A stretch of 64,000 bases of DNA from NCBI GenBank assembly GCA_039621445.1, contig CP154954.1:13572716-13636715 (forward strand), written 5' to 3'. Below the pieces are notes generated by a model that was not told the DNA's origin, made no database searches, and was given only the letters and a program-made list of their open reading frames with translations. The translations under genes and the position numbers were made by a program. This stretch comes from Euglena gracilis. Its lineage: Eukaryota. Shown here piece after piece: positions 5,510 through 63,784 of the stretch. Numbering within the stretch: the first letter of the stretch is position 1; each line of letters opens with the position of its first letter.

Positions 5510-5774
5510 CCCCCTCCCTTGCGACCTTAGTCGGACACCAAAAATTCGCCCCCCCCCCTGCTCACCAAAGAGGGGGGAACTCCTCCAATCGGCACTCCTT
5601 CACCCAAAGCCTATGTCCCACACATGATCCCTTGAACCAACCAAACGGGAAACAAAATTCAGGGACTATGGCTTTCAAGTGCCTTCGCACCATTGGGAAA
5701 GATTCACCAACCAATGGATATTTGGCTGCCCCCCCCCCCGCTTCTCACGGGTGGAATGAGGGTCTTCACCAAGA

Positions 5775-8924: not shown

Positions 8925-11900
8925 CCCTTAGCACAAAGGGTTTATCTGGGTCTACCCGTTGCAACATTAGGCCCGAACACAACCTTTTTTTCAGCTCCTC
9001 AAAAGCTTTTAAATCCTCCCCATCAAATTCCACAGGTTTTCGACTTCCTTTCTTTCCCACCTCCCTGGGGACTTTCAATTTGTCTTGCAACCGGGCAGCT
9101 ACTTCCGCATACATGTGAATGTATGCATTGTAATAATTTGTGAATCCCAAAAAGGCTCTCAAAGCCGTAATTGTTTTCGGAACCTCCCACTTTTCGATCG
9201 CTCGTAGCTTACCCGGTGCTGGCCTCCTAGTCCCGTTTCCTAAAATCTGTCCACAAAATTCGACCTCCTCCACAAAAAGGTTGGCTTTGAATTCATCAGC
9301 CACCAAAAGTTCTGTTTTCAGCACTTCCAACACCCTTCTCAAATCTTTTTCGTGTGCCCCCACCAGATCCTCCCCTTCCCTGACCGTTGTCCCCACCAGT
9401 ATGTCATCTATGTACCCTGTGGCGATATCCCTTACTGGCGTCAAACGGTCATCGATCATTTGCTGAAATTGCTGGGGGGCATTTGTCAAACCCATTACAT
9501 TCACCCTCCACTGAAAAATCCCTTTGGGGGTGAAACAACACGTTATGGGTCGACTTTCTGGGTGTAAGGGTTGTTGGTGAAAAGCTTGCTTCAAATCGAT
9601 GATTGAAAACATTTGGTTTGCACCATGTTTGACCAAAATGTCTTCAATTTTGGGTAGGGGGTAGTTGCATCGCCTTGTTTGGCTGTTTGGCCCCCTGAGG
9701 TCCACCACCCCCCTCCAAGGAAAATCGTTGTATTTTTTTGGAACTGGAAAAGTCTGGGACAGCCATTCAGAATTTTTGGCTGTGGCTGGCTCAATGTATT
9801 TTTTGTCGAGCCAGTCTTGGGTGATTTTCTCAAGTGCCTCTTTCCGCTCACCGTGCATGAAAAAAGGTTTCTGTCTGGTTGGCTTTGCCCCCTCCTTCAA
9901 CGGTATGTATGCATAACCATATTGTCCTCTTTCGGGGGGGTCTGGAAATGGCGATGCCCGAAATACCGTCCCCCTGTAATCTTGCAAAACTTGTTCCCTC
10001 AACTTGACTACCCGTTCCTCCTCTTTTTTGTCCTCCCCCTCCCTTGCAACTATCATTCGGTTGATAACTTGCACTGGGGGGTCACTTCCCTCCAAATTTG
10101 TGGCAACCTCCCCTAGGTCCTCGTCACTCAAAAATTGCAATTCCTGGTCCAACCCTTCCAATGGCAAACAAAGACCAAGTTTTTGCAACCCAAACGAAGA
10201 CCCGTCCGCCACAGTCACATCGTCCACTGAAAAATTTGTGTCATCACTGAATTTTTGCGGACTCCTCTGTCTTTCAACACCCCGCAAAAAAATCAGGTCG
10301 GGGCTGTCTTTTACCAACGCCTTGTGGTGTGGAAAAATTCCCAGTTTTGCCTCCGCCAACCATGGATAAGAAAGAATGGCATCAACTTTAATGTTTGCCT
10401 CATAAAATTCAACCTCATATTGCACACACTCAATTTCCCTTTCCTCATTCCAATTTTGTTGAAGGATCATTTGCACCTTAGCACATCTGCTCCCCCCCGC
10501 CAAAGTTTGCCCATTGGCAGTTTCAAACCTTAACGGGTCCTTAGCAGGATACATTAGGTGGTCCCCTATCAACCCTTGTCGAATGAGGTTTGCCTCCGCC
10601 CCCGTGTCAATCAAAATTCGGACTGTTTTTTCCTCCCCATTGGTCAACCGAATCTGTGTTTTTAACAGCAGTTGTCTGTCCTCCCCGAGTTTCTTTGCTC
10701 CTCCCCGAGTTTTTGTCCCCCTCAACATTCTTTTTTTCAGCCGCACCAATTTTTTCTTCCCTGGGGCTGCCCCCCCCTGGGAGGGTTGCCTTCTATCGAT
10801 CAACAAGGCCCACACCCCCCAACGGGTACCCCTCAAAATCCTCCCATCAGCCTCAAACAACTTTGTCCCCTTGGGAAAATAAATCTTTTTGACAGCCATA
10901 GCCACCAGATTTTTCACCCACCTCCTATTCCAGTCTGGGCAAATACAAATTGCCCGACAATTGGAATTTTGCAATTTTTCAGCCACCTCAGGCCACAAAG
11001 TCCAGGGGGGGTTCATCCACAACGTTTCCTCCTCCCCCCATTCCTTTTTCATGGCATCATCATCCTCCCCATAAAACTTTTCACACCTGGCATTTTGGCT
11101 GGTTGCAAAACAATCCCGTTCCGCCTTAACCCGAAATTCCTTCTCAATTTCCTCCATACAAACTTTCCTAACAGCATAATCCTCCCTACGATATCCGCTT
11201 TTTCGTTCCAACACGGTTAACAAATACTCCACCAGTTGTTTGGGCATCCTCCATTTTTTCTGAGTGCCAACTGTCATTCCATATCCTCCCAACTTTTCTC
11301 GGTGACTCCTCCCCCCAGGAATCAAATTCGGGCAGGTCTGGCCATCACAAAGTTTGTTTTGTAGCTTGCTCAGATTTTCGCTCCCCCAGATTCGGGTGGG
11401 TTTTTGATATCCCCAATCTGAAAATTGACAATAATCAACATCAACAAAAGTCAGATTTTGAACACAGGGTCTTTTTCGAAGCAACCCATGACGGGGATTT
11501 TCAATCCACCACAACTTTGGTTTGAAATATTCGACAATTTCCAAAGTTTTTTTGACCAGCCGATCTGCCCCCTCCAAATTTCTGACTCCCAGTGTTTTGG
11601 CCAAGCTATATTCTGTACAGGGCACCCCCGCAGCGATGATCTGAAAATACCCGGGGGGGTACCTCCAATATCTCCACTCCAAAATATTTGCACAGTGGGT
11701 TGGGTTAAATCTGGGGTTTATGTCCACTGACACAACCTTAAACCCCTGCTCTCTCAGGCAATCCCCAACCGAGCCTTTACCGCAAAAAAGGTCTAAAGCT
11801 CTTTTCTTTACGGAAGGCTGTGCACGATCCCTTATGGGATCTGATTTTTTACAGATTTGGGCCGAGTCACAGATTTGCACGTCACGCATGCACGCACCCG

Positions 11901-12051
11901 ACACACTGGACACACCTTGCACAGAAGTCTCCTGGGATGGCAGATTTTTCATCGTGTTTTCACTCACACGAGATTTTTCTTGCCACCTGGGATTTGTGTA
12001 TGTCTTTGTGTGGGGCTGGGTATGCGAGCCCGGGGCGGCTCCCGCCCCCAA
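8839..12051 (-). CDS. pol: Pol of element A: C5-cytosine MTase, N6-adenine MTase-like domain, aspartic protease, RT, start of RNase H
   Basis: ALDLFCGKG, GVPCTEYS, WIENP, QKPTRIW (~11210-11805); DCFAT...LWMNPPW (~10795-11185); ILIDTGA (~10605); YIDD (~9410); VDAS. Confidence 0.93.
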   Translation of the reverse strand: MGAGAAPGSHTQPHTKTYTNPRWQEKSRVSENTMKNLPSQETSVQGVSSVSGACMRDVQICDSAQICKKSDPIRDRAQPSVKKRALDLFCGKGSVGDCLREQGFKVVSVDINPRFNPTHCANILEWRYWRYPPGYFQIIAAGVPCTEYSLAKTLGVRNLEGADRLVKKTLEIVEYFKPKLWWIENPRHGLLRKRPCVQNLTFVDVDYCQFSDWGYQKPTRIWGSENLSKLQNKLCDGQTCPNLIPGGRSHREKLGGYGMTVGTQKKWRMPKQLVEYLLTVLERKSGYRREDYAVRKVCMEEIEKEFRVKAERDCFATSQNARCEKFYGEDDDAMKKEWGEEETLWMNPPWTLWPEVAEKLQNSNCRAICICPDWNRRWVKNLVAMAVKKIYFPKGTKLFEADGRILRGTRWGVWALLIDRRQPSQGGAAPGKKKLVRLKKRMLRGTKTRGGAKKLGEDRQLLLKTQIRLTNGEEKTVRILIDTGAEANLIRQGLIGDHLMYPAKDPLRFETANGQTLAGGSRCAKVQMILQQNWNEEREIECVQYEVEFYEANIKVDAILSYPWLAEAKLGIFPHHKALVKDSPDLIFLRGVERQRSPQKFSDDTNFSVDDVTVADGSSFGLQKLGLCLPLEGLDQELQFLSDEDLGEVATNLEGSDPPVQVINRMIVAREGEDKKEEERVVKLREQVLQDYRGTVFRASPFPDPPERGQYGYAYIPLKEGAKPTRQKPFFMHGERKEALEKITQDWLDKKYIEPATAKNSEWLSQTFPVPKKYNDFPWRGVVDLRGPNSQTRRCNYPLPKIEDILVKHGANQMFSIIDLKQAFHQQPLHPESRPITCCFTPKGIFQWRVNVMGLTNAPQQFQQMIDDRLTPVRDIATGYIDDILVGTTVREGEDLVGAHEKDLRRVLEVLKTELLVADEFKANLFVEEVEFCGQILGNGTRRPAPGKLRAIEKWEVPKTITALRAFLGFTNYYNAYIHMYAEVAARLQDKLKVPREVGKKGSRKPVEFDGEDLKAFEELKKRLCSGLMLQRVDPDKPFVLRVDASGYAVGGNVRANEGGGRKTHSPGCD

Positions 12052-12069
12052 CGGTCCACCCCGGCTATC

Positions 12070-15000
12070 CTAGCAACGGTTTCCTTTCCCCCTTCCTTTG
12101 CCTTTGCCTTTTCCACCGTCCTGGCCCTTTCCCCTAGACCAGTCATTTCCATTGTTTCCTTTCCCCCAGGAATTGTTTCCTTTGCCCTTTCCTTTGCCTT
12201 TGCCTTTGCCACCACCAGACTGTGAATCAAAATTCTGTTGATTTGAGTGCCACCACTGATTTCCCTGAAAATTGGTGTTGGCATTTGAATTCCACCCAGA
12301 ATCATTTCTCCATCCACCCCCATTGCCAAATTGAGATTGCTGGGGGGGTGGCAATGACTGTGATCGAATCACTGGCACTGGATTTTGCACTGGGGGGTGC
12401 ACGTTTGTATTGGTCGCAGGAGCTGCCACCTGTGAATCTGATTTTCCAACGGACGGTTTTGCCAACGTTTCGCCCCCCTTTGCTGACCGTGTTGGGGAGG
12501 GTGTCCTGGACCCCTTGGCCCGATCTGCCTTAGCAGACCTGGCCCTCCGGTTTCCAAATGCATTTGGCTCCCTGGAACTGTGTAACATGTCTTGATCATC
12601 CCTGGATGACAATTTTCGCTCAATAAAACGGAAAATTTCTTCAGCTCCCATTTTTGGCTTTTCCTCCACAATTTTGATTCTTTTATCCGTGCCTGTGATT
12701 GGTTTCCCACTGACCTCTTTCAGTTTGTCGCAAATCGCAATATTGGGCAAAAAGACTTCGAACTCCAGCGGTGAAACTTTCGAAACCTTGCAGGGCTTTT
12801 CCCCAGTGACATGTTCCACGGCACAAATGATGTTTTCCTCAGTTGCAGGCACTCCAGGGTACATTCTGATTTTCGGTCCACACGTTGATTTCCTTTCCTC
12901 CTCATCGGCGACCCAATGCAAAATGAAATTTGGCAGTTTCCCCTTGACCAGTCTTTCTGCCTCATCGTCAGTGGCACTTTTCACCTGTCTCCAGGCCATT
13001 CTGAAATTTATGACAAAGTCTCGCCATTCCCGTACGGTAATTTTCCCTTGGTTCACAAGGTTGACATCATACCATTTTTTTCTGGCACAGTCGGACTGAG
13101 TTCCAGCATATTTCCCGTCAATCCTGTCAAATTCCTCCTCGAAAGATGTTTTTCCGTTAAATTCTATTCGGAATTGCAATTCCTTTTGATTTGTGTCATC
13201 CAGCGTCATTGCAAAAAGTCGAAGTTTGAGTGGATCAGACACATGTCCATTTTGCAAAATAACCAACGTCCTGAAATATTGATCCCAATCCCGCACAAAG
13301 GACGACCAGTCTTTTGGCTGTCCAGAAAAATTTGGAGCTACCAGGTTTTTCATCAATTGATGTGTTGCCACTGCATTTGATGAAACCAGCCCTGCACCTG
13401 CAGGCACTGCCCCCACAGGTCGTGCACAAACCTGCCTGACATGTGTCGCATGTGACCCTGGTTCTGTGTATTCATAGCCTTCAATTTCAACCGGATTTTT
13501 CTCGATCACAGGTAAATTGTTGTAACCAAAAAGATCAAACTCCTCGATTTCTGGGTTTCCAGCTGACTTTTCTCTCGTTTCCTTTGTCAGATCCACTGTC
13601 GCAGATTTGGCAGATTCAGCTTGCTGATTTTTCATCACCAAAAACTCAGCCTGAAATAAATCCAGCTTTTGTTGCAATTTTTTCCGCTCCTGCTGTTCTT
13701 TAAAAAGTTCACTGGACTGCTGTTGCAGTAAAACTCCAACCTGCTGTTTCATCGAATTTTCCATTTCAGCCCGAACGTTCTCAAACTGCCCCTCCCTTTC
13801 ACTCAGCCTCAACCTTTCCTGCAACATTTCACTGATAATGTCCTCCAAATTCTTTCTCGTTTGCAGCCCCAACTCCCTTTGCACCTCCAACCGAATTGTT
13901 TCCTCGCTCTTGTTAATCAGGTCACAGACTTTTTCAATGGGAAAATCTTTCCGACCCAGAAAATTCTCCAACCTCCCCAAACGATCATTCAGAGCTTTGC
14001 TCTCTCGCTCCAGGGACTGTGAAAATTCCTTCAATTTCTCAGCCTGCGCCTGAAATTTGGCACACTCAGTCTCCCCCAAACCTTTGCATTGCTGAAAAAT
14101 GATTCCGAAACGTCCCTCCAGACCAGAGCTTAGCTCACCGACTGCAGATTTGACCTGATTAACAGCAATTTCCTGCTGTTTTTCCTTCTCCCCCACTTGT
14201 TGCACCACGACATGCATTTCCCCCAAAGATTTTTCCAAAATCGACAGCTTCTGAGAAAAATCCCTCTCATTTTTTCTCAACCCCTCAACCTGGGCCTCAA
14301 AAAACGAGTTAACTCCATCCTCCACTTTCTTCACTTTTTCAGCAAACTGCCGTTCCATTTCCACACTCAACAAATGCCTTTGGCATTGGGCCAGATTTTG
14401 CACCATTTCACCATTTTGCTGAAACTGCAAAAGCAAGTCGTTTACAGTTGCACTCAGTTCAGCCTGAATTTCACGTTTCACCATGGCAATGTGATCAGCC
14501 ATTCGCCCATCATGCATGCCCAATGCCTCATTCACCAGATTCAATGTCTGCCCCTGTGACATGGCCAATGCCCGATTTAGCCTGTTTTCTGCCTCCCCCA
14601 CCAGATTTTCAGCCGTTTTTTCAGGATTTTTTCCTTCCTGCACCAAAAGTCTGCCATGTAAACATTCAATTTTGCAACTGATTTCTTCACCCCAGTTGTT
14701 CCAATCATCATCAGATTGGCCATAGCCCGATTCCATTTCCACATCATGCTGATTTTCAGGGTTTTCGGACCCAGTTTCTGCAGAAAAACTGGTGTTTGGC
14801 TGCAAATTTTGTGGCTGGGTCTGTGGAAAATCTGGCTGAATTGGCCAAAAAACCTGGGCTGGGCCTGTGTTTGAAGACACTGTTGACGCTGGCTGAAAAC
14901 TCTGCCCAGGCATCTGGGCTGGCCCCATGATTGCTGGGACAGATGACTCAGCCGAAAACTGCTGGGCTGGCTGAAAAACCTGTGAAGTCATCTGGGCTGG

Positions 15001-16209
15001 CCCCATGATTGCTGGGACAGATGACTCAGCCGAAAACTGCTGGGCTGGCTGAAAAACCTGTGAAATCATCTGGGCTGGGACAGATATCTCAGCCAAAAAC
15101 GGCTGGGCTGGCTGACAAACCTGCAGCTGGGCTGCAGCTGGCTGTGCTGACTGCGATTCTGAACTCTGTGTTAACAGCAATGGTTCTGGCTGGGCTGTTA
15201 AACACAAAATTTTTTGTTCTGGCCCTGGGCTGCTGTCTCGTGACACAGAAATTTGCTGAAAACCTGAAAAATTTACTGGCCACATGCCAGCAGCTTTCAT
15301 TCTCTGTATAACCATTTCCTGAATTATGGCGTTTTCAGCTCCTTTTTCTTCCTCTGATTCGCTTTCGTATGTTGGGGGGTCTGATTCGTCGTCACTGCCA
15401 TGCAGTGGAACCAGATGTAAATTTTCTGGCCCTAACACCGTGATGGGCCTAATGCATGTAAATGACCCCCTCTCCGAATCAGAATCAGATTCTGATTCCT
15501 GTGTCGTTTCTGAAAATCCTGAAGCCGATAAAGTTTCCGCAGCCTGAAAATTGTTTTCTGCCACAGATCTCAGAAAATTTTCACCACAATCTGAAATTCG
15601 GACAGATTGGCTGGGAAACGAGCAGATTTCTGCAGATTCTTCTGAAAATTCACAGACCACAGGGTTGATGAAACTGTCCTCGTGTACCATTCTGCTGGCA
15701 CAGCCACCAGAACAAATCTCTGTGACCGTGTCGACCGTCTCTGAAAAATTTTCACTGACTGGGTCAGTGAAACAACCTTTGCTTGCGATGTCAGCCGAAT
15801 CTGAAAACTTTGCACTGATTCTGCTGGTAGAGCCAGCGGAACAAATCTCTGCCACGATGTTCACCGAATCTGAAAAATCCTCAATGATTCTGCTGGCAGA
15901 GCCAGCAGAACAAACCTCTGCGACCATGTTCGCCGACCCCACCCCCTGTGCGCCGCCGGTCGCCCCCGCGACCGGCGAGTCCCGGTGGGCCGAGGGCCCG
16001 GGGGGGTCCTCGCCGTCGTGGATAACCACCGACAGCAGGGTGGTGGGTGTTTCCGGGGCGGGGCCTGCGCTTTTTCTGGGGGTTGGTGGGCTCAGGCCAA
16101 CTCCCATTTTTTCACCCAGGTGTTTCCCCCTACCCCAGCCGGTGCGTAGGATCGTTTTTTTAATGTTTTCTGAAAATTTGGTGAACACCGAAAAATCTGC
16201 CATTTGCAA
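12070..16209 (-). CDS. gag: Gag-like ORF of element A (true start uncertain; called ORF begins inside the LTR)
   Basis: 1379-aa ORF upstream of pol with a coiled-coil-like region, capsid-like PNFSGQPKDWSSFVRDW and a GK-rich tail; internal tandem repeats at ~14890-15120. Confidence 0.8.
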   Translation of the reverse strand: MQMADFSVFTKFSENIKKTILRTGWGRGKHLGEKMGVGLSPPTPRKSAGPAPETPTTLLSVVIHDGEDPPGPSAHRDSPVAGATGGAQGVGSANMVAEVCSAGSASRIIEDFSDSVNIVAEICSAGSTSRISAKFSDSADIASKGCFTDPVSENFSETVDTVTEICSGGCASRMVHEDSFINPVVCEFSEESAEICSFPSQSVRISDCGENFLRSVAENNFQAAETLSASGFSETTQESESDSDSERGSFTCIRPITVLGPENLHLVPLHGSDDESDPPTYESESEEEKGAENAIIQEMVIQRMKAAGMWPVNFSGFQQISVSRDSSPGPEQKILCLTAQPEPLLLTQSSESQSAQPAAAQLQVCQPAQPFLAEISVPAQMISQVFQPAQQFSAESSVPAIMGPAQMTSQVFQPAQQFSAESSVPAIMGPAQMPGQSFQPASTVSSNTGPAQVFWPIQPDFPQTQPQNLQPNTSFSAETGSENPENQHDVEMESGYGQSDDDWNNWGEEISCKIECLHGRLLVQEGKNPEKTAENLVGEAENRLNRALAMSQGQTLNLVNEALGMHDGRMADHIAMVKREIQAELSATVNDLLLQFQQNGEMVQNLAQCQRHLLSVEMERQFAEKVKKVEDGVNSFFEAQVEGLRKNERDFSQKLSILEKSLGEMHVVVQQVGEKEKQQEIAVNQVKSAVGELSSGLEGRFGIIFQQCKGLGETECAKFQAQAEKLKEFSQSLERESKALNDRLGRLENFLGRKDFPIEKVCDLINKSEETIRLEVQRELGLQTRKNLEDIISEMLQERLRLSEREGQFENVRAEMENSMKQQVGVLLQQQSSELFKEQQERKKLQQKLDLFQAEFLVMKNQQAESAKSATVDLTKETREKSAGNPEIEEFDLFGYNNLPVIEKNPVEIEGYEYTEPGSHATHVRQVCARPVGAVPAGAGLVSSNAVATHQLMKNLVAPNFSGQPKDWSSFVRDWDQYFRTLVILQNGHVSDPLKLRLFAMTLDDTNQKELQFRIEFNGKTSFEEEFDRIDGKYAGTQSDCARKKWYDVNLVNQGKITVREWRDFVINFRMAWRQVKSATDDEAERLVKGKLPNFILHWVADEEERKSTCGPKIRMYPGVPATEENIICAVEHVTGEKPCKVSKVSPLEFEVFLPNIAICDKLKEVSGKPITGTDKRIKIVEEKPKMGAEEIFRFIERKLSSRDDQDMLHSSREPNAFGNRRARSAKADRAKGSRTPSPTRSAKGGETLAKPSVGKSDSQVAAPATNTNVHPPVQNPVPVIRSQSLPPPQQSQFGNGGGWRNDSGWNSNANTNFQGNQWWHSNQQNFDSQSGGGKGKGKGKGKGNNSWGKGNNGNDWSRGKGQDGGKGKGKGRGKGNRC
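15915..15926 (-). promoter_or_regulatory. Primer binding site of element A, initiator-tRNA-Met-like
   Basis: TGGTCGCAGAGG directly after the 5' LTR; one mismatch to the common TGGTAGCAGAGG. Confidence 0.75.
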
Positions 16210-16746
16210 TGAAATCGAACTTTTCTCTCTGAAATCTCACTTTTCTCTCTTTCTCACTCTCACACCCTCTTGCACAAACCAACCCACAAACCAACCCACT
16301 GAAACTGAAATGAATCCCAACCCACTGGAGAAGCAATCACACTGTTTGAAATCTGTGAGAGTGACTGAATGTAATGAAAAAAACAACCTGGGGCAAGGAA
16401 GAGGGGATAGGGAATAGGAGTGGCGGTGAGGGTGGCGGTGTTGTAGGGTCTCCTTCAAACCAATCCTTCAATGAATTCAACCAACAATGTAATGCCCAAC
16501 AATGTAATTGCCAATTCCAATTCAACAATGTGATTGATCAAATCCAATTCAATGTATTTCCTCTTTGCCAAATAATGGGGAAAACCCCTCAAGTTCTGTG
16601 AACAAAAAGAATTTGAAAGGTCTTTGAAATTTGACCCGCTTCCAATTTAAGTCGCGGGTTTTTTTAACTGGTTGGCTGTTACCCGCGACTTTGAAATTTG
16701 CGCTTTCTGGCAATTTTTGGCTGCCGGCGAAAGCCGGCGGCCGACA
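15927..16746 (-). repeat. 5' LTR of element A
   Basis: Direct repeat of 4690-5509, followed by PBS. Confidence 0.95.
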
Positions 16747-16750
16747 CCAC

Positions 16751-18294
16751 CATCGTTCCCCAGCACTCGGAGACGTTGGAGAAGTCGAAGAAGGAGTACA
16801 AACAGGTGGAAGGTCGCCTGAAGCGCTCTGAATTCCGAAAGGTAGAAAGCTACCGCCACACGGGAATGGCCCGTAAGTTCCAGATCGACGGTAGGGCAAT
16901 GCGACTCGCCGTCGAGGAACATGCCAAGGTAAGAATGCCTTACCTCTGGTCCGTTGGCGACTGAGTGACACAGGTTTACCCGTTGTTCTCCAAGCGCCAA
17001 CAAAGGATTCGCCTTGCCACAGTGGCCTCATGAAGGTCACTATTTGGTGGAGTTCAGAGGTTGGTTGGCGGCTGTATTACGGCCCCATACCGCAAGAGCT
17101 CAGACAACGAGGTGGACGTATGACGTCAACTTCAAGCAGACCCCAGGGATGCCCCCGCAGGCGCCTGCGAATAACCCCCGGATGAATTACATCATCTGGC
17201 CGGTAATGCTGACTTTTCAGTATCATGCTGACCGGACCAGGGAGAGGCTACCGGACAGTTGGATCAAGGTCTGGGATACCCCATCCTTTGATATCAACGA
17301 TCCGGATCAGAACACCATCCGGAGTGAATCCACTCCGCAGCGTTCCCCACGCCAACTGGAGTTGGTTGAGGACCCATTAGGGGATACTCGACACCACTAC
17401 TGGCATGAGGTACGCAAACACCCGGCCGACAAAGGCAGGTGAGGTTCCTGTAAGCGCCAATGCGGCGCCTTTCAGAACCCTCGTCAGGTATTCGCCTGAC
17501 AGCTTGTTCGGATATTCGCCCGAAAATCCCTTCGAAGACCTTTGCGGTATTCGCCGCTAGTAAGTCCCCACCGGGATGCTACCATGTGCAGGATTCGGTG
17601 CGCATGCACGCACACCCCTCTCCCCTCTCCCCTCTCGCGAGCGTGCGACACGCAGCGCACAGGGCCGAAGGCCTACTTTTCCTGTTCTTTTTCTTTTTGG
17701 CCGTTTGAGGCCATAAGGTTGCCAGACAGAACAACTTTTTCTGGCCTAAGCCAACCCCACAGTCCTCTGTACTTTCCTCCCGGGACAAATGCTGTCGCCG
17801 GCAGTTGGTTTTGTACAGTAGGATTTTCTGTTTGCGTGGTCAGGTTTGACTGGCCATCCGCCCTGCCCAGGTTTAACTGGTCACGGGACCCCACCTTCCA
17901 CACCTTTCCCATGTGTTTTCCTGGAATGCCCATGGACCCAACCCCAAGTGCCTTGGGCACACCCAAACTGGGTGGATGGATTTGCTTGGCAAGGAAACCT
18001 GCCAGCCCCATTTTCCCCGGTGGGCTATAATATACTATTCCCATAAGCCCGCAGAAAAGGTGAAACTATTTTGCGCGTTTTCGGCTTTTTGTGTTCCCCT
18101 CCTTACAGCCCCCCCCCACCCTTGAGTGGCCCCCTGTGCGACGGAAAGGGCCCCTGTGGATTCACCAGAGTGCATCTCCCACGGACCAGGTCTGTGTCCG
18201 ACATCCCTGTGGCCAGAATGCCCGGTCCAAAGAGGAAATCGGGCATAGCCCTGGGAGGGGGATGTGTTCCAGGAGTATGCTTCTGTCCACTTCT
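16751..18294 (+). mobile_element. 3' part of element B': rest of accessory ORF, 3' UTR, PPT and start of 3' LTR
   Basis: YRHTGMARKFQIDG and LVEDPL match ORF 38210-39232; 17700-18273 resembles 39570-40124; PPT GGGAGGGGGA (18253-18262) then TGTGTTCCAGG. Confidence 0.85.
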
Positions 18295-21200
18295 GTTTTT
18301 TTAGGGGCTATAGCCGGCTTGCTGGGTCGCGCGTGCACTCTCTTCTCACCTTGTGGAGCGCACCAGGGCGGGCGAACTACCCTTTGCGTGTGTGTTGTTT
18401 TTGCCGGCTCCACTCTCCTTTGTGGCCTCGTTGGGCGGATACCTTTCGCCTGGCGTGTAGGCTCTTTTTTTTTGGTGGCTTCTTTTTTTAGTTTTTTTTT
18501 GTGGGGGGGGGCGCCTTTTGGGGGGTGTTTCCGTGGTGAACCTCCACGCTTTGTGGGTTGTGGCCGTCTTGGTCTTTGTCTTGCTCGCTTTTGGTGTGTT
18601 CTGCGGTGGGGGTTGAGGACTCACCATGGGTGGAGGGCCTCCTCCACGCGGTCTCTGGCGGAGAGCTGCCGCGCCACGTGGCGCATGAGTGTCACCGATA
18701 GTGCTTCCTGCATTTCTTGCAGGGCGATGTCTTTGGCCATCCCCGCAGGTGGCCCTTTTGGTCACCTCAAACAGCACCGCCTTGGCAGAGGTGGCCAGGC
18801 CTCTTCATGTGCTCAGGCCGAAGGGTGAGAAGCCCCACCCCTTCGCCTGAAACGGGGGGCCATCCGTCTGCACTTTCCTGGTTTCCACCTGGTTGCAATG
18901 GCTACGGGCATTGTCCACCACCAGAGGGTGCTCTCCCAGCCCCACGGGGTGGCTGCACACGAAATCAACTGCCACGTGTTGCCCCCGTGACCAGTTGATG
19001 AGGAGAACATCAGCTGGTCTTTTGTTCGCCAAACATTCTACCTCCTTCTCCACCGCAATGTTGTACCGGGCGCACATCGCCGCAAAAGCATCTCGGAGTG
19101 CATTGCGCCGTTGGGTGTTTCCATTCTGCTGGCAGCAGACGAAGTGATCCCCCAAGGGATCAATGGACCCTCGACCCAGTGGGCACCCCGGCAGCGTGAC
19201 GTGGTGGGCGGAGAAAGTGGCGGAAATGCAGAGCCAGCGAGTCGACGCGGTCGGCTCTGCCATGGACCGGGTGAGACGGGCTTGCCAAAAGGGACCAGTG
19301 GCAACGGGATGGCTGCAGATTTTGCCCAGCAAGGCACAGCACACAGCTTTCTCGGACACCCAATACCGGCTGCTACTGCGGTGGTGGCTTGGCCTGCCCA
19401 TCCTCCCTTCAACGGTGGCGTGTTCTGGTGCTGCGGAGGAGAGTGGGGTGGTGCCTGCGAGCCAGCTGGCCACAGGATCCATGTTGGGGCCAAGCCGTTG
19501 CTGCAACCGTTGTAGCGTGTCTTACATGTCCGGGGATGGGGTTGCCAACACCGAGGCTGGCACCCCGACTGCTTGGCTGCCGTGCATCCCCAGATTCAGC
19601 AAGGCCGCCATCCGTGCCGCGGGTTGCAACACTTCGGGGTCCGAGATTCCGAGTACCCCTTGGCGGATGGGCAGGGAGACTTGATCCCATGAACTCTCGG
19701 TGATTCCCAGTCCGAGGAGATCTTGTACGGCTTCCTGTAGCCGTGCCCTGAGAATGAGCGGGAGATCCCGTGGGTTTTCTCTCTCCGTTGATCGGAGGAG
19801 GTGGACCACCCCACATCCGTCAATACAATACCGCAAGAGTGCGTGCCGCACTTGCTCCTCCGGGTATACCCTGAGCCGTTCCAGGAGCAAGGTCGCCTTG
19901 TCCACGGTCTCTTCTCGTACGGCTTGGCATTGTGGTGCTCTTGGCGTGTCCTCTTGTGCTGTGCGATGCTCCCGCGGGGCATCAATTGGGACGCCCAGGG
20001 TCGTGATGCTCCTCGGTCCTCCAAAGGGAATCACAGGCACTTGTTGTCCCAAGTGGTCTTCTGCCAAACCGACTGGGTAACGTGGCCCGGCTTGATTGAC
20101 CGTTTGCATCCCAGGTCCCCAAAATATGCACTTGGCCAATTTGGGGTGGAGGCCTACTCGCTCCAGGACCGTGCTGAGGTCATGGAGGCGGGCCAACACC
20201 ACTGCTGATTTCCCCACGATGTGGCCGTCGTCGAGGTACCAAGACTCCCATGCCAATTCCCGGGCAAAGCACTGGTCAAGGGCGTAGTCCAAGCCCAGTG
20301 CAAAGCCCAAGGGCCCGCGTGCGTCTCCTTGATGCACTCCGATCTGGCTTGTACATAGGAGCCGCCCTTGGCAGAACAACGGACTTGGTCCACTGTAGCA
20401 AAAGTGCAGCCAGTTTTACGCCGTGGTGGCCAAGCATCCCCGGAGCACTGCATCTCTGCTGATGGAGTTGAAGGCATTACGCATATCCACCTGCAACACC
20501 ACATAGTCGTTGTCCCCTTGGAGGTGGCTTGACTGGACGTAGCGATGCAGGCCCATGCCCACCATCTCGGCGGCGTTGCACACTCCCATCCCGCACTGCC
20601 GCGGTTGTAGGGCTGCCAACTCCATCGTCACCGCTTCAGAATGGAGAAGGCACTTGCCTCCCACTCGCCGGAGGGTGTCCCTGACGGCAATGGGCTGCAC
20701 CGCCCCACCCTTCTTGCGGAGCGGGATGAGCGTGGAAGCGCATGGCCCTTCTCGCACGCTCTCCGGGAATGATGTGGTCAGGGCCGTCGCAGCAAGCTTG
20801 CCGAGAGCTTGGACCAGGGCCCCCCCCCGGCCCCAGCTTTCGGCAACACTCACTGAGGTGGATTGGACACAGCCCAGATGGTCTGCCTGTGGACCCCAGG
20901 GGGAAGGAGACCACGGCTGCCCAGGCCCGCTTGGACCACTGGTCGTTGCTCTCCTCTTCGTCCATGCCCTCGTTCACCAGGCGGCAGGCAATCGAGGTGG
21001 GCAAATCCCCTGCCGGGACCAAGTGTGGCTGTGGTGGGGGATCGAGGTCCCTCAGTACGGCTTCCACACCTGGTTCTTGCCTGTTGACTAGCCCATCTGA
21101 CACCAACAGCTTAGCGGCCTTGGACAGTGCGCCTTCCTCCACCAACGCCCTGATTTTTCCCCACCTGGGATGGTGACATTTCCCCTTCCTCCTCCCGCCT

Positions 21201-22358
21201 GGCCTGTGCCCTTGTGCACGCCGGTTGGTCCAATGGGGCCTGCCGTGCTTGGGCGTTCGCCTCGGCCCACAAGGTTCCCAGTTGGCCTTGCTGAAACAGA
21301 CGCAGCCGTCGGTCCATGTCATGTGCTGCCTGCCGCTGGTGCTTGCTTCCACCCCGGCCTGATGAAAGCAAGACCAGCTTTGGGAAACACATGAGACGGT
21401 GGGGGGCCTCCCAGGTTGGCACTGGGACCGCCATATCCCTCACCAGATGTGCCAGCTCTTGGGAGATGGCGATGCGACACACTGCCGGGCTGTGTCTCAC
21501 TATGGGCACATGCACGACGAGCACCTCGTCAAACGTCGGCGTCATTTGTAGGCATCTGCTTGTGGTTGGTGTTCCTGGCTGTGGCAGGGCTGCGTCTCTC
21601 GGGGGGATGAGAGGCACGGGGCCCCGTGTTGCCTCTGCGGCGTCGAGGCCTTGCGGTGCCACCTGGCAGTTCCTTCATCTCTTGCTTTGGGGCACAAGTG
21701 AGCGGCAGGGGCCTGCGCAGACCCGTACCCTCAGCATTTGGAGGACTGCTGACGGCACCACTTGGCCGTGCGACACGTGGCGCGCGGCCAGGTGCGACAC
21801 CAACGCTTTTCGGGACTTGGTGGTGAGGGCTTCTGGGCACGATGGAAAGGGACACATGAGGGTTGGTGGTCCCCTGCTTCTGCTTCTTCCTCTTCGTCCT
21901 CAGCCGCCACGTCATCCCCTTGCTTTCCTTCGACGTGGCGGCCGAGTGCCACGGGAATCCGTGGCGTGTCCCTGCTTTCTGCCCCCTTCCCTCCCCTTGG
22001 GGATGTTCTTCTTGGTGGTGCGTTTGGCTTGGGTGTGGTGGTGGCTGTGCCGCTGCTCGCTGAGGTGCGGAGGTTCACCACGTCCCTGCCCCTTACGGAC
22101 TCCAAAAATGCTACACCGGGGTCGTGGCTTACACCCAAACTGTCGCTGCGCTGCCTCTTGTTCCGCAGGCAACCAATTGAATCCTCCTCTGTGTTCATGT
22201 TCTGGTTGACGACTTGAACTTCTTTCCTTTTCTTGATACTTGTGCTTCAGGCGATGTTATTTGAAGGATGTGGAAGATCTTCAATAAGCTTGGACCCCAC
22301 CAGGGGCTTTCAAGACATGGTACTTAGGCCAGACGAAAAAAATAGACACTCAGAAAGT
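18295..22358 (-). mobile_element. Full-length, decayed CRE/SLACS-like non-LTR retrotransposon E starting with the SL exon
   Basis: C2H2 finger (CPFPSC...HLAARH), RT (GVHQGD, SWYLDDG ~20230), CCHC and RLE (GDHFVCC, RPADVLL); short A tail; TSD TCTGTCCACTTCT at 18282-18294 and 22358-22370. Confidence 0.9.
22334..22358 (-). other. Euglenid spliced-leader exon copy
   Basis: Minus strand ACTTTCTGAGTGTCTATTTTTTTCG, matching the Euglena-type SL as recalled, with a T7 run. Confidence 0.9.
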
Positions 22359-22413
22359 CTGTCCACTTCTCCACTTCCAGTTGTCCACTGTCCAGTTCTG
22401 TACACTTCCGATG

Positions 22414-22621
22414 TGGAACCAAGTTGAGGACCAGCGGTGGTGGGACGAATCCACCGACCAGTGGCATAGCCTACTGTATTTGTCTGAGTTCGTGGGAGGG
22501 GGGCTATGTACAGATGGGCAAAGCCCATGGGCAGTGAAAGTGTATGAGGAGGTGGTTGAATGGAAGGGAGGTTAAGGTGTTAGTTTGTAGCGGTAGTAGA
22601 GGCTTATGCCTGTAGCGTTTC
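22414..22621 (-). mobile_element. 208-bp extreme 5'-truncated non-LTR copy (3' terminal motif only)
   Basis: Flanked by 11-bp TSD CACTTCCGATG (22403-22413, 22622-22632); contains the conserved 3' motif at 22435-22530. Confidence 0.85.
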
Positions 22622-22650
22622 CACTTCCGATGAGAAATAAGTATTCGTGT

Positions 22651-23240
22651 TGGAACGGTGGTGGGACGAAATGAGTCCACCGACCAGTGGGACAGCCTAC
22701 TGGATTTGAATGTTCAGGGGAGAGCTATGTATAGATGGGGAAACCCCATGGATAGTCAGGGGAGGGTAAGCAGGAGTCGGCTCAGCGGCTTGTCATTACA
22801 GATGGTGTGTGGGACCGGGTGAGTGGTGGTTACCCTGGGGCATGCCGAGACGTACTTTGATGGACTGAGAGTGCGGGGTGTCAGTCCTTTGGCGCTACTT
22901 CGGGTCACGCTCCTGCTGCGGGTGCGCACCGTTGGGGCGGCTGCGTTGGCCACCCTCCTGCGATTAAGGACGAGCCCTGGCTGATCTTTGAGAGGGTGTG
23001 GTGATAGGCGGGGAGTATCGTGTTCGTGTCGGCGTGTCCCATGGTGCTGAGCGAAGGAAGTGCTTGGGGCGCAGCATCTGCACCACTTGGCGGAAGAGAG
23101 CCACCGCCAGCAGCTGGTAGCTCTCTGCCTGTCGTGTAGAGCGTATATCGGCCTGATCCCAGGCGGTGGTCCGTTTCATCATCCGGGAAAGAAACTTGGC
23201 CATCGCTTTCAGGGGCCGATGAGGGGGGGCTACTGACACA
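22651..23240 (-). mobile_element. 5'-truncated CRE-like copy (RLE C-terminus, 3' UTR, 3' motif)
   Basis: AKFLSRMMKRTTAWDQ...LRPKHFLR matches the C-terminus of 24699-25076; motif at 22656-22751. Confidence 0.8.
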
Positions 23241-23248
23241 CGGACCAT

Positions 23249-24360
23249 CGGTGGTGGGGCGAACCGAATACACCGACCAGTTGCACCCCCTACTGGGTTT
23301 GAGTGTTCAGGGGGGAGGGAGGCTATGTACAGATGGTGAAACCCCATGGGTAGTCAAAGGGGTAGCAGCGGCCAGGGAGGCTGTGCAAAGCGGAAGATAC
23401 AACGGGTTCGGAGCGTTGAGTGCTTTAGGCGCGGGGGTGTGGTAGGGAGCGGTGTGAGGGGAGCGCTTGGTGTTCAGTCAGGTGCGCGTGGTTTGTGTTT
23501 TGTGTGTGTGTGTTTTTTCCTGTGGGCTGCTTTGGCCTGTGCTTCTCCTTGGGTGTTACTAGTGTTTGCTTTTTGTCCCCTTGCTTCCGGGTTTGTTCCC
23601 GGTTTGTCAGGGATGCGTGCTGTTGTTGCCAATATCTTGACGACCTGCCTCATCAGGGAGATGGACAGTTGTTCGTGCAGTTCGTTGCTTTAATGTGGCG
23701 TTGTTCTCCCTCATGCCAGGAAGCTGCTCTATGAATTATTCTTTTGATATTTTTGGCGCCTTCAGGTCCACATCCACCCCATGTGCCAAAGGCAGCTGTT
23801 GCAAAACTCCAGCCTGCCTTTTGGCACGGTTCATCATATTTGTCATGTTTTTGTTTTTCTTTTTGTTTCAGGAAGGGTTTCCATTTTTTCTTTGCCTTGT
23901 CGGTTTGCGTTTTGCCAACTGTGGACCACTGTGAGGTCGAAGGCAGTGGGTTGGCCATTATCCCAGGCAGATAGCAGCAAGTCAGCGGGTCTGAGGTGTT
24001 GGTCTGGTTGATTTGGGATTTGTACTTCCTTGGTTAACCCCTGTCCAGAGATCCGGAGAATTTCAAACAATTTGTCTTGCAGGGCGTTGTGTCTCTCAGA
24101 ATAGTTGTTGCAATTACAACAAAGTACGTGATCTCCCCAATCATCGACTGTTGAGTTGCAACCTGGACATTGGGGTGCGTTTTGGGAGTGCAGCAGCTGT
24201 ACCCCGAGCCACCACTTCAATGAGAGGATGTATTCCTCCGATGACATGCTTGTGTGAAGTGTAGGCAGGGGTGTTGCCCACATCCATGCTGAAAACAGTC
24301 CATTCTATGTTTCTGACAGACGCGCTTGGTCTCGTGGTTGGCGGGCCGAGTTTAGTTTGT
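23249..24360 (-). mobile_element. 5'-truncated CRE-like copy (CCHC, RLE, 3' UTR, 3' motif)
   Basis: LKWWLG, CPGC...GDHVLCC...RHN, LRPADLLL, FGTWGG; motif at 23249-23349. Confidence 0.88.
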
Positions 24361-24404
24361 CCGGTGCTGCGCGGTGAAGGTGAGTTGTCCACCAATGTTG
24401 TGAT

Positions 24405-25019
24405 TATCGATTGGCCCGATGAGTTGCACAGCCTACTGGATTTGTGTGTTCAGGGGAGTCGGAGGCTATGTACAGATGAGGCAACCCCATGGTCAGGCAG
24501 TGGGGACAAGTGTGCGGGAGGGAAGCGGGCAAGACCCAACTTCCATATAAGGCGGAGGGGAGGGCAGGGCGGTGCGTCCCGTTGTCTGGTTTCGTGGTCC
24601 GCGGGTGTGGGAGAGGTGGGGGGCGGGTTGGTTGTTGTCTTCTGCTTCTTGTTTTCTTCTTTTCTCTTTCTTCTGCTCTGCTGCTGTTTTTTTTTTGGTC
24701 AACGGAGCAGGTGCTTGGGTTGCAGGAGGTGGAAAACCTCTCGTAGCAGGGAGATGGCCACGTTCTGGTAGATTTCCGCCTCCTTGATTTCGCGCTCGGC
24801 TCCCTGTTGCCAGGACGAGGCACGTTTGGCCACTCTGCTTAGTGTCTTGGCCGTTTCAGGGCCCGTGCCGCCCCACGTCCCCAGGGCGAACAGCGTGAAG
24901 CCCCACCCTGCTTGCTGGCAGGGGATGGTGTACTTCGGTTTCTTGGCCTCCTCCCTTCTCTTTAGGAAGGACCTCCAGCGCTCGCGGGTGGCATTGTGTT
25001 CTGTGGTCTGCCATCCGTG
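24405..25019 (-). mobile_element. 3' end of non-LTR element D, separated from its body by Gypsy B
   Basis: HGWQTTEH...LGTWGG continues ...STALDVTVCHG at 40512; 3' motif at ~24407-24492. Confidence 0.9.
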
Positions 25020-25818: not shown

Positions 25819-27135
25819 GTGTTTGGTGTTAAGAATTACCTGGACCCAAACCCCTGGAATACCACCGAGGGTCAACGGGTTACTCAGAGAGACTTCAAGG
25901 GCACCATCGCAATCGCGAACAAGGTGAAACCCCAATGGGACGGGGATCCAACCACATGGAGACAATTTTTTCGGGACTGGGAGTACTATTGGGCACTCAA
26001 GGGACCCACCCAAGACCCGAATCCCGAGGTAGTCAAGATGTAATTCATCCATTGCCTACCAAGGGAGGAGCGAGAACGCGCACGCAATTTGGTGATACGT
26101 AATGGCGTATCATTCGATGACCTGGTTGAGCAATACGCTTCAACCAACTCAAGTTTGGTCACCAGGATTACCCTGGAGAAGAAATGGCGACAATCCGCGC
26201 CACCGGATCGCAAATGGAAATCCATTGACCTTTGGTATGCCAAATGGTTAGCACTTGCTTCCGAAGTTGATGAACTTAGCGAGAAGCAAATGCGCGAACA
26301 ATTCGATGCGGTTTTCTTGCATTTCATACCATCTCTCCTGAAGGACATCCATCGCGAGGAGTTGGCAGGGCATGAGATGAGTCTTGCCCAACGTTGGAAT
26401 TATGTGTCAAAGCAACTCAAGCTCCAACAAGTTATGGGACAAATACAGTCCGCTTTCCAATCACATCGCACCGCGGGAGTCCCTGCGGGTGCGGTAAATG
26501 CGTTGCAAAAATCACTCATGTCACCGAGATCACCCACCACGGGATCGAAAACGCGGAATCAGCGTTCTTCGGACCAAGGCACGGATAAACTGTGCTTTTT
26601 GTGCAACCAATCTGGTCACAAGTCTCGGGAATGCCCGAATCCCGATGCGCGAAAGCGTATTGGAAGCCCTAGGGGCTCGACCTCCTCACGGGGATCGGGT
26701 TCCTCGGCGTTTTCACGACAATCGGGAGTTTCACGTTCTTCGGAGAACCGCTTTAGCGGTAGTAGGCCCAAGTCACCATCGCGTGATGGTCGGGAAACCT
26801 GTCCTTCTCGCGGTCGGTCACCTGGCCCCCCTACCCGAAAACGGGATTTCAATGGCGACTCTTCACGATCTCGTTCGCAAAGTGGATCATCCTCTTCGTG
26901 TGAGTCATCGGGGAAACCCCGGTATACCGGTCATGGTCGACGGGAAAACCGTTCACCACGACGGTTTGACGGAAGAACGGAATACCGTTCCCCCCGTTAT
27001 GCAGAATCCCGCCACAAATCCCGTTGTACACTTTGCGGTTCCAAAGACCACCACTCATCCAAATGTCCAAGATCTCGTTCCCCCCGGCCCGGCTACGGAA
27101 ATCGCGGTAAACGCCGCGAGGACGGTGGTTACTGA
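25819..27135 (+). CDS. gag: Gag of element B (premature stop at 26041-26043)
   Basis: PQWDGDPTTWRQF capsid-like motif, CFLCNQSGHKSREC and CTLCGSKDHHSSKC knuckles, RS-rich tail. Confidence 0.88.
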
Positions 27136-27368: not shown

Positions 27369-29789
27369 ATGGAGGTAAGGCCTGATCAACCTTGCCCCCC
27401 CTGCACATCCGCCTTCACGGTCTGTACCCGGAATTATTTCGGGTCCCCTACCCCCCACTCCACATTTCCGCTCGTAATGCTGAGGAAAGTAGGAAATGGT
27501 TCATGCGAAAGCTGGCATGCAAACGTATTTCTGCCAGACCCTTCACTTTGCGTACCACCAACGGAATTACTCGTCCAAGCGGAAATCCGCATTCAAAATT
27601 TCTCCACCAAAGTTAAAATTTTAATTGACACTGGTTGTCGCATTGCACTGCTTTTTTGGTTGGGGTTGATACCGACCCCGCTCTTGGTAAGCGCCAAGAA
27701 ACCGATCAAAATTTCAACCGCGGATAACACCCCCATGTGCGGTGGTGATTTGGGATGTGTGCTCGAGATACTCTTGCCCATCATCCCCAAGCATCACTCA
27801 CACCCCCCACAATTACAACATTTCACCAACATTTTTGGTTACGAGTCCAGAATTCACGGGTCTGACGTAATTTTGGGATACCCATTTTTACGCCAGTACC
27901 GATTGGTTGTGGATTGCAACTCCCACGGTTTGCGCACAGCACCCACCACTTCATTGACACCCAAACCACCATCACCGTTGGCATCCACTATGACGACCAC
28001 CACTTTTCCAACACCGTTACCCACAATGGCAACACCGTTATCCACCACACCAACAACCGTTTTCCACACCCGGGGTACGGAGAAAGCCTCCCCCCTACCC
28101 AATGACACACCTACATGCGTTCCACACGAGGTAGGGCAAGCGAGTAGCAGTACCCCCGCCGTTTCACTGGGTTACAAGACGAAAGCCCAAAGGCCTGAAG
28201 TAATTACGGTGTCGAGTAGTCGCCCAGCTACACCACCACTCCGTTTCCCACCAGTTGTGCCGAATCCAGGCACACCTGTACAAGACTCACCGGCTAATGC
28301 CATCGACACCCACTTATATGCACACCCGACACACCATCACACTTCCTACCAATGTGTGCACTGCAGGAGAATTTCCACCCAATCGGATTTCGATTGTGGA
28401 TGTTTAGTTGAAAATCCGACACTAATCGCTATTCCGAATACGGAATCCACACCCAAGGATACACTTGGTTGTAGCCCGCAATGCGCGGAGATACACCGAG
28501 TACTCCAACAACGCGGATTAGCCTCGTTGTTCGGAAACGCGAAAAGCGTCATTCCTTCCATTAACCGCGATCACACTTGGTACGGATTTGATGCGGAATG
28601 GGGAAATCCCCAACCTGTCCAAACTCCCTTGGGATTAACCCTTGAGGTAGTGGAAGACAGCCCGCATGTTTTTGGATCCATTCATTGTGTTTCTTCACTC
28701 CAACCCGGAATGCGGGTGCATGAATACGCGAAACGCGTATGGAATGCTTTCAATTTTGGTCAATATCGCATTTTGGAACGATGGTTTTCTAAAGTCGCGA
28801 CATTGGCCGATTCTTTTGATTTGGCATTGGAAATCGATGCCTTTTCATCCAATGCACATGCCCCGTCATTGCCACGTCATTGATCACAACACTCCAACGC
28901 ATGTGATAAATTTTGGGGTGATACGGTGTTATGGATGCACCCTCCCCCAAAACTTATCGGATGTGTGGTTGAGAAAATTCTGCGAGATGAAGCCCGTGGA
29001 GTTATTCTCATACCCATCATTCCGGATGCGGAATGGTTCACCCAACTATCGTACGTGTGTTTTCATTGGTGGGATTTACCCACTAATGTACCGATTTTTG
29101 AGGATTTTTGTGGTAAAATGTTACCACCCTTGCAAGAAATCATTTTTCAGCGTATGTTTCTTGGATGCATTCGGAATGTCCGAATTCGCGGTGCCGAGGA
29201 AGATCGGTAGCCCCAGGGATACCCTGGTGGTTTCCGCAGTCGTCGAGAGTGCAGGTCAGCATCCTAAGTCAGAAGAATTCTATTCGCGGATCACCCGCGA
29301 CTTTCACGGTGTGCTGGAAAATCCAGTATACGCGTGCGACATCGACCCCGCGGTACGCGGTCCGTTCGGTGTTTGTAAGATCGAGCTTAAGGAAGGAGCT
29401 AAACCTATGCACCGGAAAATTTTTCGTTGTTCGGGAGAACGCGAACAAGCTCTCAATGAAATGATTGAGAGGCTTATTCAGCGCAAGTGGATTGTCCCCT
29501 CGAAAAGCGAGTGGACATCCCAGGCATTTGTTGTTCCTAAACCCCCAGACCCCTCAGGTCAGAAGAAATGGAGACTGGTGTTGGATTACGGTACCTGAAC
29601 TCCCAAACAAGGGATGATCCCTTCCCGGTCCCCCTGATCACGGATTTGATCACCAAACAATCGGAAAACCGGTTGTGGTCAATTTTCGATCTGTAGGACG
29701 GTTTTCACCAAATGCACTTGCACCCTGACTCACAACCATACACGGCATTCGTGACATCCAAGGGTGTGTACCAATGAACGGTACTCCCC
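27369..29789 (+). pseudogene. pol: Pol 5' part of element B: protease, N6-MTase-like remnant (~28760-29150), RT N-terminus; frameshifts and stops
   Basis: ILIDTGC; LEIDAFSS then LWMHPPPKLIGCVVEKILRDEARGVILIP...W; KWRLVLDY. Confidence 0.85.
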
Positions 29790-43195: not shown

Positions 43196-43249
43196 TGGAC
43201 CGGCATTCTCCTCCACGTCCCCACAGGTGAGGAGGCTGCCCCGTCCGCG
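43196..43249 (-). other. 2A-like (StopGo) peptide RGRGSLLTCGDVEENAGP
   Basis: 16/18 identical to T2A EGRGSLLTCGDVEENPGP; NAGP is one base from NPGP. Confidence 0.85.
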
Positions 43250-44205: not shown

Positions 44206-44225
44206 CCGTCAGCCGAGGGGAGTCC

Positions 44226-46165: not shown

Positions 46166-46176
46166 GAGTAAGTTAG

Positions 46177-63721: not shown

Positions 63722-63723
<2 letters not shown>

Positions 63724-63780: not shown

Positions 63781-63784
<4 letters not shown>

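Follow-up and report, generated by a model that had tools for sequence, protein, structure and literature searches.

The stretch analysed here, a window of 64,000 nucleotides (nt) from Euglena gracilis (NCBI GenBank assembly GCA_039621445.1, contig CP154954.1, positions 13,572,716 to 13,636,715 of the forward strand; positions below are counted from the first letter of the window), contains an inserted element, which we term E, whose first bases are a complete copy of the spliced leader (SL) exon. E, a second SL-headed element (E2), their SLs, the target-site duplication (TSD) of E and the stack of long interspersed nuclear elements (LINEs) in which E is set all lie on the minus strand. E is a 4.06-kb element inside an exact 13-bp duplication, AGAAGTGGACAGA, with an upstream copy at 22370-22358 and a downstream copy at 18294-18282, the whole forming one insertion that spans 22370-18282. 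No third occurrence of this sequence is present in the window, even when one mismatch is allowed; 0.07 matches were expected by chance (at most one mismatch) and two occurrences were seen in 0/100 shuffles, and coincidence was rejected on these grounds as the origin of the repeat. Directly downstream of the upstream copy stands the SL exon ACTTTCTGAGTGTCTATTTTTTTCG (22358-22334), with a run of 7 T, whose identity as a complete SL rests on the match in the window, the SL of the literature and SL genes. The last A of the upstream TSD copy is at the same time the first A of the SL, such that the TSD may be counted as 12 or 13 bp and the SL as 25 or 24 nt. There follow a leader (22333-22307) made up of TCT, 12 nt and CATGTCTTGAAAG, with an ATG at 22318-22316 that is in frame with the main open reading frame (ORF) and separated from it by two stops; a decayed coding region (22123-18624), delimited by translations, tblastn and a profile; and a 3' untranslated region (18623-18295), read from the sequence, which ends in A7 (18302-18296) plus C (...CCCCTAAAAAAAC) and passes at once into the downstream TSD copy. 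With its complete SL, its 12-13-bp duplication and its tail of A7, E presents the hallmarks of a processed retrocopy, and from this anatomy it follows that the RNA from which it was copied carried the SL at its start and an A-rich tail at its end. An earlier note, made from the letters of the sequence alone, had described an element running from an SL to an A tail within a TSD, and both its coordinates and its description prove correct.

The SL 24-mer has two matches in the window at up to three mismatches, where 0.00 are expected; the second, at 46162-46139, heads E2. The SL of E. gracilis given in the accessible part of PMC6242988 is the window sequence with 8 T rather than 7, and a primer in the available portion of PMC5654406 agrees with the published Euglena SL; hence the host SL, which the earlier note had allowed might prove to be another sequence, differs only trivially, by one T, and is otherwise identical. 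As controls for genuine SL genes, a 21-nt segment of the SL was run against public metagenome contigs, which yielded 9 SL copies on 8 loci or contigs, all of them true SL RNA genes and none an SL-headed element; the same 21-mer had 0 matches in viral contigs. GTAT directly follows the SL in 9/9 of these gene copies, with AATTTTTGG-like sites further on, and a 5S rRNA gene adjoins the SL gene in three of the four loci that were scanned with Rfam. In both E and E2, by contrast, TCT follows the SL without an intron, just as the earlier note had observed for E. An Rfam scan of the whole window at gathering scores returned zero matches, i.e. no 5S rRNA, no SL-type RNA and no ribozyme, although a divergent ribozyme would escape such a scan. 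No Sm-like site lies within ~150 nt of either SL, the nearest AATTTTTGG on the SL strand being ~1 kb from the SL of E2 (45178-45170, inside E2), and in BLAST comparisons with the 8 SL gene loci the window shares nothing but the SL (21-29 nt) and a GT microsatellite, so that the flanks of E do not resemble the SL RNA gene repeat. Two candidate identities were discarded: the SLs of the window are not SL RNA genes, as the GT donor is absent, and the SL of E is not part of its target, as it would then recur at the 3' side. The SL of E stands within the TSD, has no second copy at the 3' side and is without SL gene context; it is thus cargo of the inserted nucleic acid and not its target, which upholds the view taken in the earlier note.

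E2 (46163-40512) provides the only other SL of the window (46139-46163), again with 7 T, and is a longer element than E. Its SL is preceded by AC and by 19 nt of unrelated sequence that follow the CCACCACCG end of a truncated LINE (46191-46183). A leader TCTCCGC together with ORF1 occupies 45565-46138, with ATGs at 46131 and 46125 and the block CATGGCTGGAAAG at 46126-46114, and the start reads SL, TCTCCGC, ATG AAC ATG GCT GGA AAG; for ORF1 no relatives were detectable, in either the near or the longer length class. Upstream of pol lies a segment (43196-44147) with a Dam-like methyltransferase (NPPW at 44030-44019) and a 2A-like GDVEENAGP (43222-43196), and an open frame of 714 aa (40553-42694) then contains the reverse transcriptase (RT; Pfam RVT_1, E 7e-11) and a CCHC motif with a restriction-like endonuclease (RLE). 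The 3' end of E2 is cut at ~40512 by another copy of a long terminal repeat (LTR), the remainder was not found in the window and, because the LTR removes the 3' end, no TSD can be read for E2. The Dam-like segment matches the Pfam Dam model at E 6.8e-5 and 23 bits, under the cutoff, and the Dam domain of a Gypsy element in the window (~11130-10762) at 30% identity and E 3e-15. From these sequence matches E2 may be a 'DAM-LINE': according to the accessible part of a 2026 preprint on DAM retrotransposons, there are DAM elements in Euglena with RTs that branch with LINEs (10.64898/2026.05.21.726589). A canonical 2A (D[VI]ExNPGP) is found near the N-terminus in 8/119 relatives of the E2 pol (P0001, P0005, P0008, P0009, P0022, P0027, P0056 and P0078) and is doubled in two, and ribosome skipping accordingly seems, from the motif, to be common in this LINE group. 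L1Tc, too, carries an N-terminal 2A peptide.

The coding region of E combines a C2H2-type finger (CPFPSCPE...HLAARH, ~21860-21780), which also occurs in the intact proteins P0034, P0037 and P0042, an RT with YLDD (~20980-19900) and a C-terminus with a degenerate CCHC/RHN and an RPAD-type RLE (...RPADVLL...VAVDFV..., ~19250-18950). In tblastn it aligns over nearly its full length with those three proteins (1087-1174 aa, from public assemblies) at 57-62% identity. The decay shows in three or more in-frame stops, in some four frame changes and in the loss of the second C of the knuckle and the H of RHN, which is consistent with a dead copy. Four separate pieces of E gave no match in Pfam, and the class of the element emerges from a profile of 29 aligned sequences, out of 119 relatives retrieved with the RT of E2, which was run against solved structures. 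It scores highest against R2 retrotransposon proteins (E 1.7e-46, 3e-46 and 1.4e-38), and the alignment to R2 (9nl3_A, 9dou_A) takes in the RT, CxxC...H...C, RHN, E, (R)PAD/KPD, DvtV and K; LINE-1 ORF2p is matched over the RT part only, at ~1e-17. Invariant in the 29 relatives are C913, C916, H926, C930, H939, E960 and K1023. The single sequence of E2 yielded no R2 match against the solved structures, and the family profile was needed for it to appear. The 8 pieces scanned by Pfam gave no match to the apurinic-type endonuclease Exo_endo_phos. Given the profile match over RT, CCHC and RLE and the lack of an apurinic-type endonuclease, E is by its sequence assigned to the dead R2-like, RLE-bearing non-LTR retrotransposons, R2-like denoting a broad class and not a named clade. 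Elsewhere, a protein cluster atlas held only generic RVT_1 clusters, viral contigs scanned with the family profile gave 70 pattern matches and no relative, and a translated SL, as would arise from read-through, is present in the predicted proteins of 0/119 relatives.

E and E2 belong to long-diverged families, with RT identity of 32% over 631 aa and leaders that can barely be aligned, and yet both are headed by the identical 7-T SL followed by TCT. Moreover, a block CATG(T/G)CT(T/G)GAAAG, the CATGNCTNGAAAG start block, stands 12 nt past the TCT in E (22319-22307) and 10 nt past it in E2 (46126-46114, the start of ORF1), with 13/15 positions identical, which puts the start codon 15 nt (E) and 13 nt (E2) after the SL. 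As judged from the sequence, this block is probably the shared beginning of the first ORF (M-A/S-G-K). Useful sequence anchors for the 5' ends of the two families are TCTGGCCTAAG... for E and T(C/G)TCCGCAT... for E2. Among the LINEs of the window an SL stands at 2/2 intact 5' ends and at 0/5 truncated copies (those designated A-D below and one at ~47418-46604).

We favor, at somewhat better than even odds, full-length copying of the trans-spliced mRNA of E as the best reading of these observations. By this mechanism, the mRNA of E would have been trans-spliced a few bases upstream of the start codon, as are most Euglena mRNAs; target-primed reverse transcription would then have copied the mature mRNA to its extreme 5' end; and in this way the 25-nt SL would have come to head the new DNA copy, within the TSD. 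We infer that the SL was put on the RNA by trans-splicing rather than by transcription from an SL-type start, and that in the source copy TCT was immediately preceded by an AG acceptor. A trans-spliced mRNA is the simplest template because in E as in E2 the last base of the SL coincides with the known splice junction, and the very short leader between the SL and the start codon fits trans-splicing as well. The identity of the SL in E and E2, despite 32% identity of their RTs, likewise fits an SL renewed from the host and not one slowly inherited. As to the origin of the template, then, the trans-spliced mRNA put forward in the earlier note stands as the simplest source, but the acceptor has been lost in the copy: the pyrimidine tract and AG lie upstream of the splice point and are absent from the mRNA, and a copy made from it is therefore without them. 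The CAG which had been placed directly before the SL of E is indeed there, but it comes after a purine-rich stretch that holds no pyrimidine tract.

Several observations weigh against this account. First, the copy reads ...TTTCG|TCT, with CG and not AG at the junction, and should not by itself remake an SL|TCT RNA. Second, the homology of the junction and the start block in the two long-diverged families argues for a heritable 5' end. Third, relic SLs, which would be expected after re-splicing at the SL-internal AG in the dinoflagellate fashion, are absent: the earlier note had suggested looking for stacked relics, and there are none in the window, where neither the 16-mer nor the 14-mer of the SL 3' end has a further match at up to two mismatches. 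Re-splicing at that AG, or at the CAG before the SL of E, would leave stacked leaders. Fourth, both SLs of the window have T-runs of 7 (22341-22347 and 46141-46147), against 8 in the published SL and 8 or 9 in 9/9 of the metagenomic gene copies, and the public contigs that cover the SL of E2 mostly have an extra T (12 and 13 contigs, with 17,020/21,606 and 52,881/67,392 of the summed depth). Possible causes of the 7-T form are a minority SL variant, slippage by the RT, inheritance through DNA or a homopolymer error of the assembly. Fifth, RNA coverage of E2 is very low (48 and 66 reads from ~5-6% of two runs), and no outron-bearing source copy is among the matches listed for E2, which is not evidence of absence. 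Such a copy could give rise to the same RNA by three routes only: new masters founded by rare outron-bearing unspliced transcripts, initiation at SL base 1 directed by the SL in the DNA, or removal of the SL at a non-AG site.

The second and third of these points, together with the 7-T form, bear directly on an alternative in which these LINEs inherit the SL as a module of their 5' end. On this account SL-headed copies are themselves active sources, initiating transcription at or near SL base 1, where the SL would serve as an initiator or internal promoter element in a role also suggested for DinoSL relics, or having their DNA-encoded SL swapped for a new one, and the SL of E was copied from parental DNA and not freshly added. 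The persistence of a homologous SL|TCT junction and start block in two families seems to need competent SL-headed sources, the minority 7-T form is common to both SLs, relic SLs are absent, and there is a published parallel in dinoflagellates (in the accessible parts of PMC5585692 and PMC12014239). Yet 25 nt inherited through DNA should have changed unless strongly selected, and they are identical in E and E2; a variant 5' end of the E2 family in public contigs has 8 T; promoter activity is purely hypothetical here; and 7 T can be explained by RT slippage, a minor SL RNA variant or a homopolymer assembly error. We consider this alternative unlikely. Were it true, each full-length progeny would be born with a working 5' end, a new solution to the 'lost promoter' problem of LINEs, and the shared 7-T leader and the homologous SL-to-ATG spacing would be footprints of inheritance. 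In that event the euglenid SL would constitute a portable, heritable 5' end of R2-like LINEs, maintained through SL-headed masters by initiation at, or replacement via, the SL in their DNA, a generalization to which we give about the same low credence.

Public reads bear on whether SL-headed RNA of such elements exists. Two raw RNA runs and two contig runs under the same species label, the RNA runs having been chosen by that label, were compared with the part of the window around E2 (40000-47000) only; contigs cannot reveal where an RNA starts. In one X1 contig an 8-T SL is joined to TGTCCGCATACACATGGAACG, after which the sequence enters E2 at 46007, representing a variant 5' end with the same junction. 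A set of 14 X21 RNA reads extends from inside the SL through a variant E2-type leader (TCTCCGCAT.. / TCTCCGCATACAC...) and diverges from the window at 46112; the alignments of these 14 reads halt at the T-run of the SL (7 of them at 46147), as would fit an 8-T leader. A relative of E2 thus seems to give rise to SL-headed RNA. It was further observed that the 14 reads agree with the leader up to ...GGAAAGG (46113-46112) and then continue into unrelated sequence in complete mutual agreement; this change of sequence reflects either a related family or an unconventional splice.

The insertion sites bear on a further alternative, namely that E and E2 come from families specific to SL genes, in the manner of CRE/SLACS/CZAR and NeSL-1, with masters at the exon-intron border of SL genes that use the SL RNA promoter, E and E2 themselves being off-target insertions of the resulting co-transcripts. 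Some lineages of RLE-type LINEs do have SL exons as their targets (accessible part of PMC4640811), and SLACS-like RT annotations occur in gene models of Diplonema (as far as the available part of PMC10161547 goes). The AC before the SL of E2 is as in SL genes (..CTCAC AC vs ..CTTAC AC), 7/8 bases before TTTCTG in E2 match some SL gene loci and, as its 3' flank is lost, an SL gene target is still conceivable for E2, though for E2 alone. Against this, the duplication that surrounds the SL of E bears no relation to SL genes; the window has no SL intron, no 5S gene and no Sm-like site within the ~150 nt around its SLs; a site-specific family would hardly be expected to show two ectopic copies in 64 kb and not one in an SL gene; and a cut exactly at the splice donor would be required in two divergent families. 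We therefore hold this explanation to be improbable.

Around E, LINE 3' ends are packed head to tail. A stack of four 5'-truncated R2-like LINE 3' ends (22371-25019) comprises A (~25019-24400), the tail of which has diverged; B (~24445-23249) and C (23248-22656), both with a conserved tail; and D (22655-22371 and 18281-18274), in the tail of which E is inserted. The tails of B, C and D share ...CAGTAGGCTGTGCCACTGGTCGGTGGA...CCACCACCG. E entered 77 nt past the CCACCACCG of D, in its purine-rich tail, which resumes for 8 nt beyond the downstream TSD copy. The whole stack, including E, is bracketed by an 11-bp duplication, CCTGGAACACA, at 18263-18273 and 25030-25020, and in a second LTR copy at 40124-40114 the same CCTGGAACACA sequence is uninterrupted. 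The LTR in question ends with ...GGACGTACA on the plus strand, followed by TTGGTAGCAGAATTAGG, a putative primer-binding site by its position in the sequence, and is situated just before a plus-strand chromovirus, whose gag knuckle is at 26044-27132 and whose RT, RNase H, integrase and chromodomain are at 29778-32405. From the two TSD copies of E, this Gypsy LTR is reached 8 nt past the downstream one and ~2.65 kb ahead of the upstream one. The nesting is thus of E in a LINE tail, of that tail in a LINE stack and of the stack in a Gypsy (chromovirus) LTR. The Gypsy LTR which had been named in the earlier note as the flanks of E does enclose the site, but the immediate flanks are the tail of another LINE, D.

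As an observation apart, the stack in its single 11-bp duplication (25030-18263) resembles either serial end-to-end template jumps or repeated insertions into LINE tails. In the read contigs, the conserved LINE tail stops with CCACCACCG(T) at 46182-46183, past which the contigs differ in sequence (68 X1 contigs, agreement 0.37), and one read contig links the start of the SL (46163) to 46260, inside such a LINE tail; SL-headed elements may hence often lie just past CCACCACCG tails. As regards a fixed target sequence, E and E2, the two cases of the window, stand 77 and 19 nt past the CCACCACCG ends of other LINEs, with insertion-point sequences that are unlike each other.

This architecture invites the idea that the SL was gained during reverse transcription itself. 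The enzyme would reach the 5' end of its RNA at TCT and jump to an SL exon set free as an intermediate in the first step of trans-splicing; in a variant, the cDNA of E would have been set into that of D by two template switches, with no separate insertion. R2 enzymes do jump between templates end to end, the four truncated 3' ends within one 11-bp duplication look like serial jumps, and SL-headed elements follow such tails in both cases of the window, with one read contig similar. A whole SL RNA, however, would have brought its intron, of which there is none; the free exon is rare and short-lived, and yet the SL is on both full-length copies; the variant with two switches still requires an RNA of E that begins with the SL; and the 14 X21 reads point to an SL at the junction in the RNA of a relative of E2. 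We accordingly regard acquisition of the SL by a template jump as very improbable.

E has a close published counterpart in dinoflagellates, where DinoSL relics mark retrocopies (accessible part of PMC5585692). In the recycling of mRNAs described in the portions available of PMC5585692 and PMC12014239, the leader is, as in E, reverse-transcribed along with the mRNA and fixed at the 5' end of the retrocopy, where these sources propose that it aids expression. The copied mRNA of E differs in being that of the retrotransposon itself and not of a host gene mobilized in trans; its SL is full length, whereas the DinoSL relics are clipped at an internal AG and stacked; and E, unlike the dinoflagellate retrogenes, has a clean duplication enclosing the SL. 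In Hydra, ~30% of the Iso-Seq reads of transposable elements carry an SL (in the part of PMC12220107 available), which is a phenomenon at the level of RNA, as opposed to the genomic SL inside a TSD seen in E.

CRE1/CRE2, SLACS, CZAR and NeSL-1 resemble E in combining RT, zinc knuckle and RLE, in living in a host that trans-splices and in having an SL at the 5' junction. Their insertions split SL RNA genes at one fixed internal site, with SL gene sequence to either side. E, on the other hand, holds a whole SL exon inside its TSD, is flanked by a LINE tail and an LTR and has no SL intron, and is thus the mirror image of these elements, whose target is the SL. With R2, to whose protein architecture its own is related by the profile match, and with L1Tc, E would share a 5' end that a LINE devoid of a conventional promoter of its own acquires by RNA processing of a longer co-transcript, which R2 achieves by a ribozyme like that of hepatitis delta virus (HDV) and L1Tc with Pr77 and a ribozyme. 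The comparison with an HDV-like ribozyme drawn in the earlier note is nevertheless imperfect: a ribozyme, situated downstream of the site it cuts, passes into the copy, but a trans-splice acceptor, situated upstream of the cut, does not.

LINEs need a defined and translatable 5' end in each generation, and the known means to it are internal promoters and 5' ribozymes. E shows directly, at the level of the genome, that an R2-like LINE has been mobilized from an RNA starting with the host SL. SL-headed LINE copies are an expected consequence of trans-splicing, and yet they are undocumented for Euglena in the literature searched: a full-text search, with subscription journals and supplements beyond its reach, returned no description of them. 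The loss of the acceptor, set against a junction conserved across divergent families, implies either hidden outron-bearing masters or that the SL itself restores expression. The SL is a built-in tag of full-length, mRNA-derived insertions in euglenid genomes, usable to count and date retrotransposition much as DinoSL relics are in dinoflagellates.

Beyond the SL-headed elements, the window holds a Gypsy-type element on the minus strand (6803-16236), in which a single ORF joins a cytosine methylase-like domain (E 3.4e-4, just under the cutoff), Dam (38 bits), protease, RT and RNase H; an ORF for the integrase comes next, along with a 1388-aa ORF that has no Pfam match. Its LTRs (4685-5514 and 15923-16751) are 97% identical, and the whole resembles the 'EpiLTR' in the accessible part of the 2026 preprint (10.64898/2026.05.21.726589). 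Finally, the segment at 57600-64000 contains long G-rich low-complexity repeats, with (GT)n at ~63724-63780.

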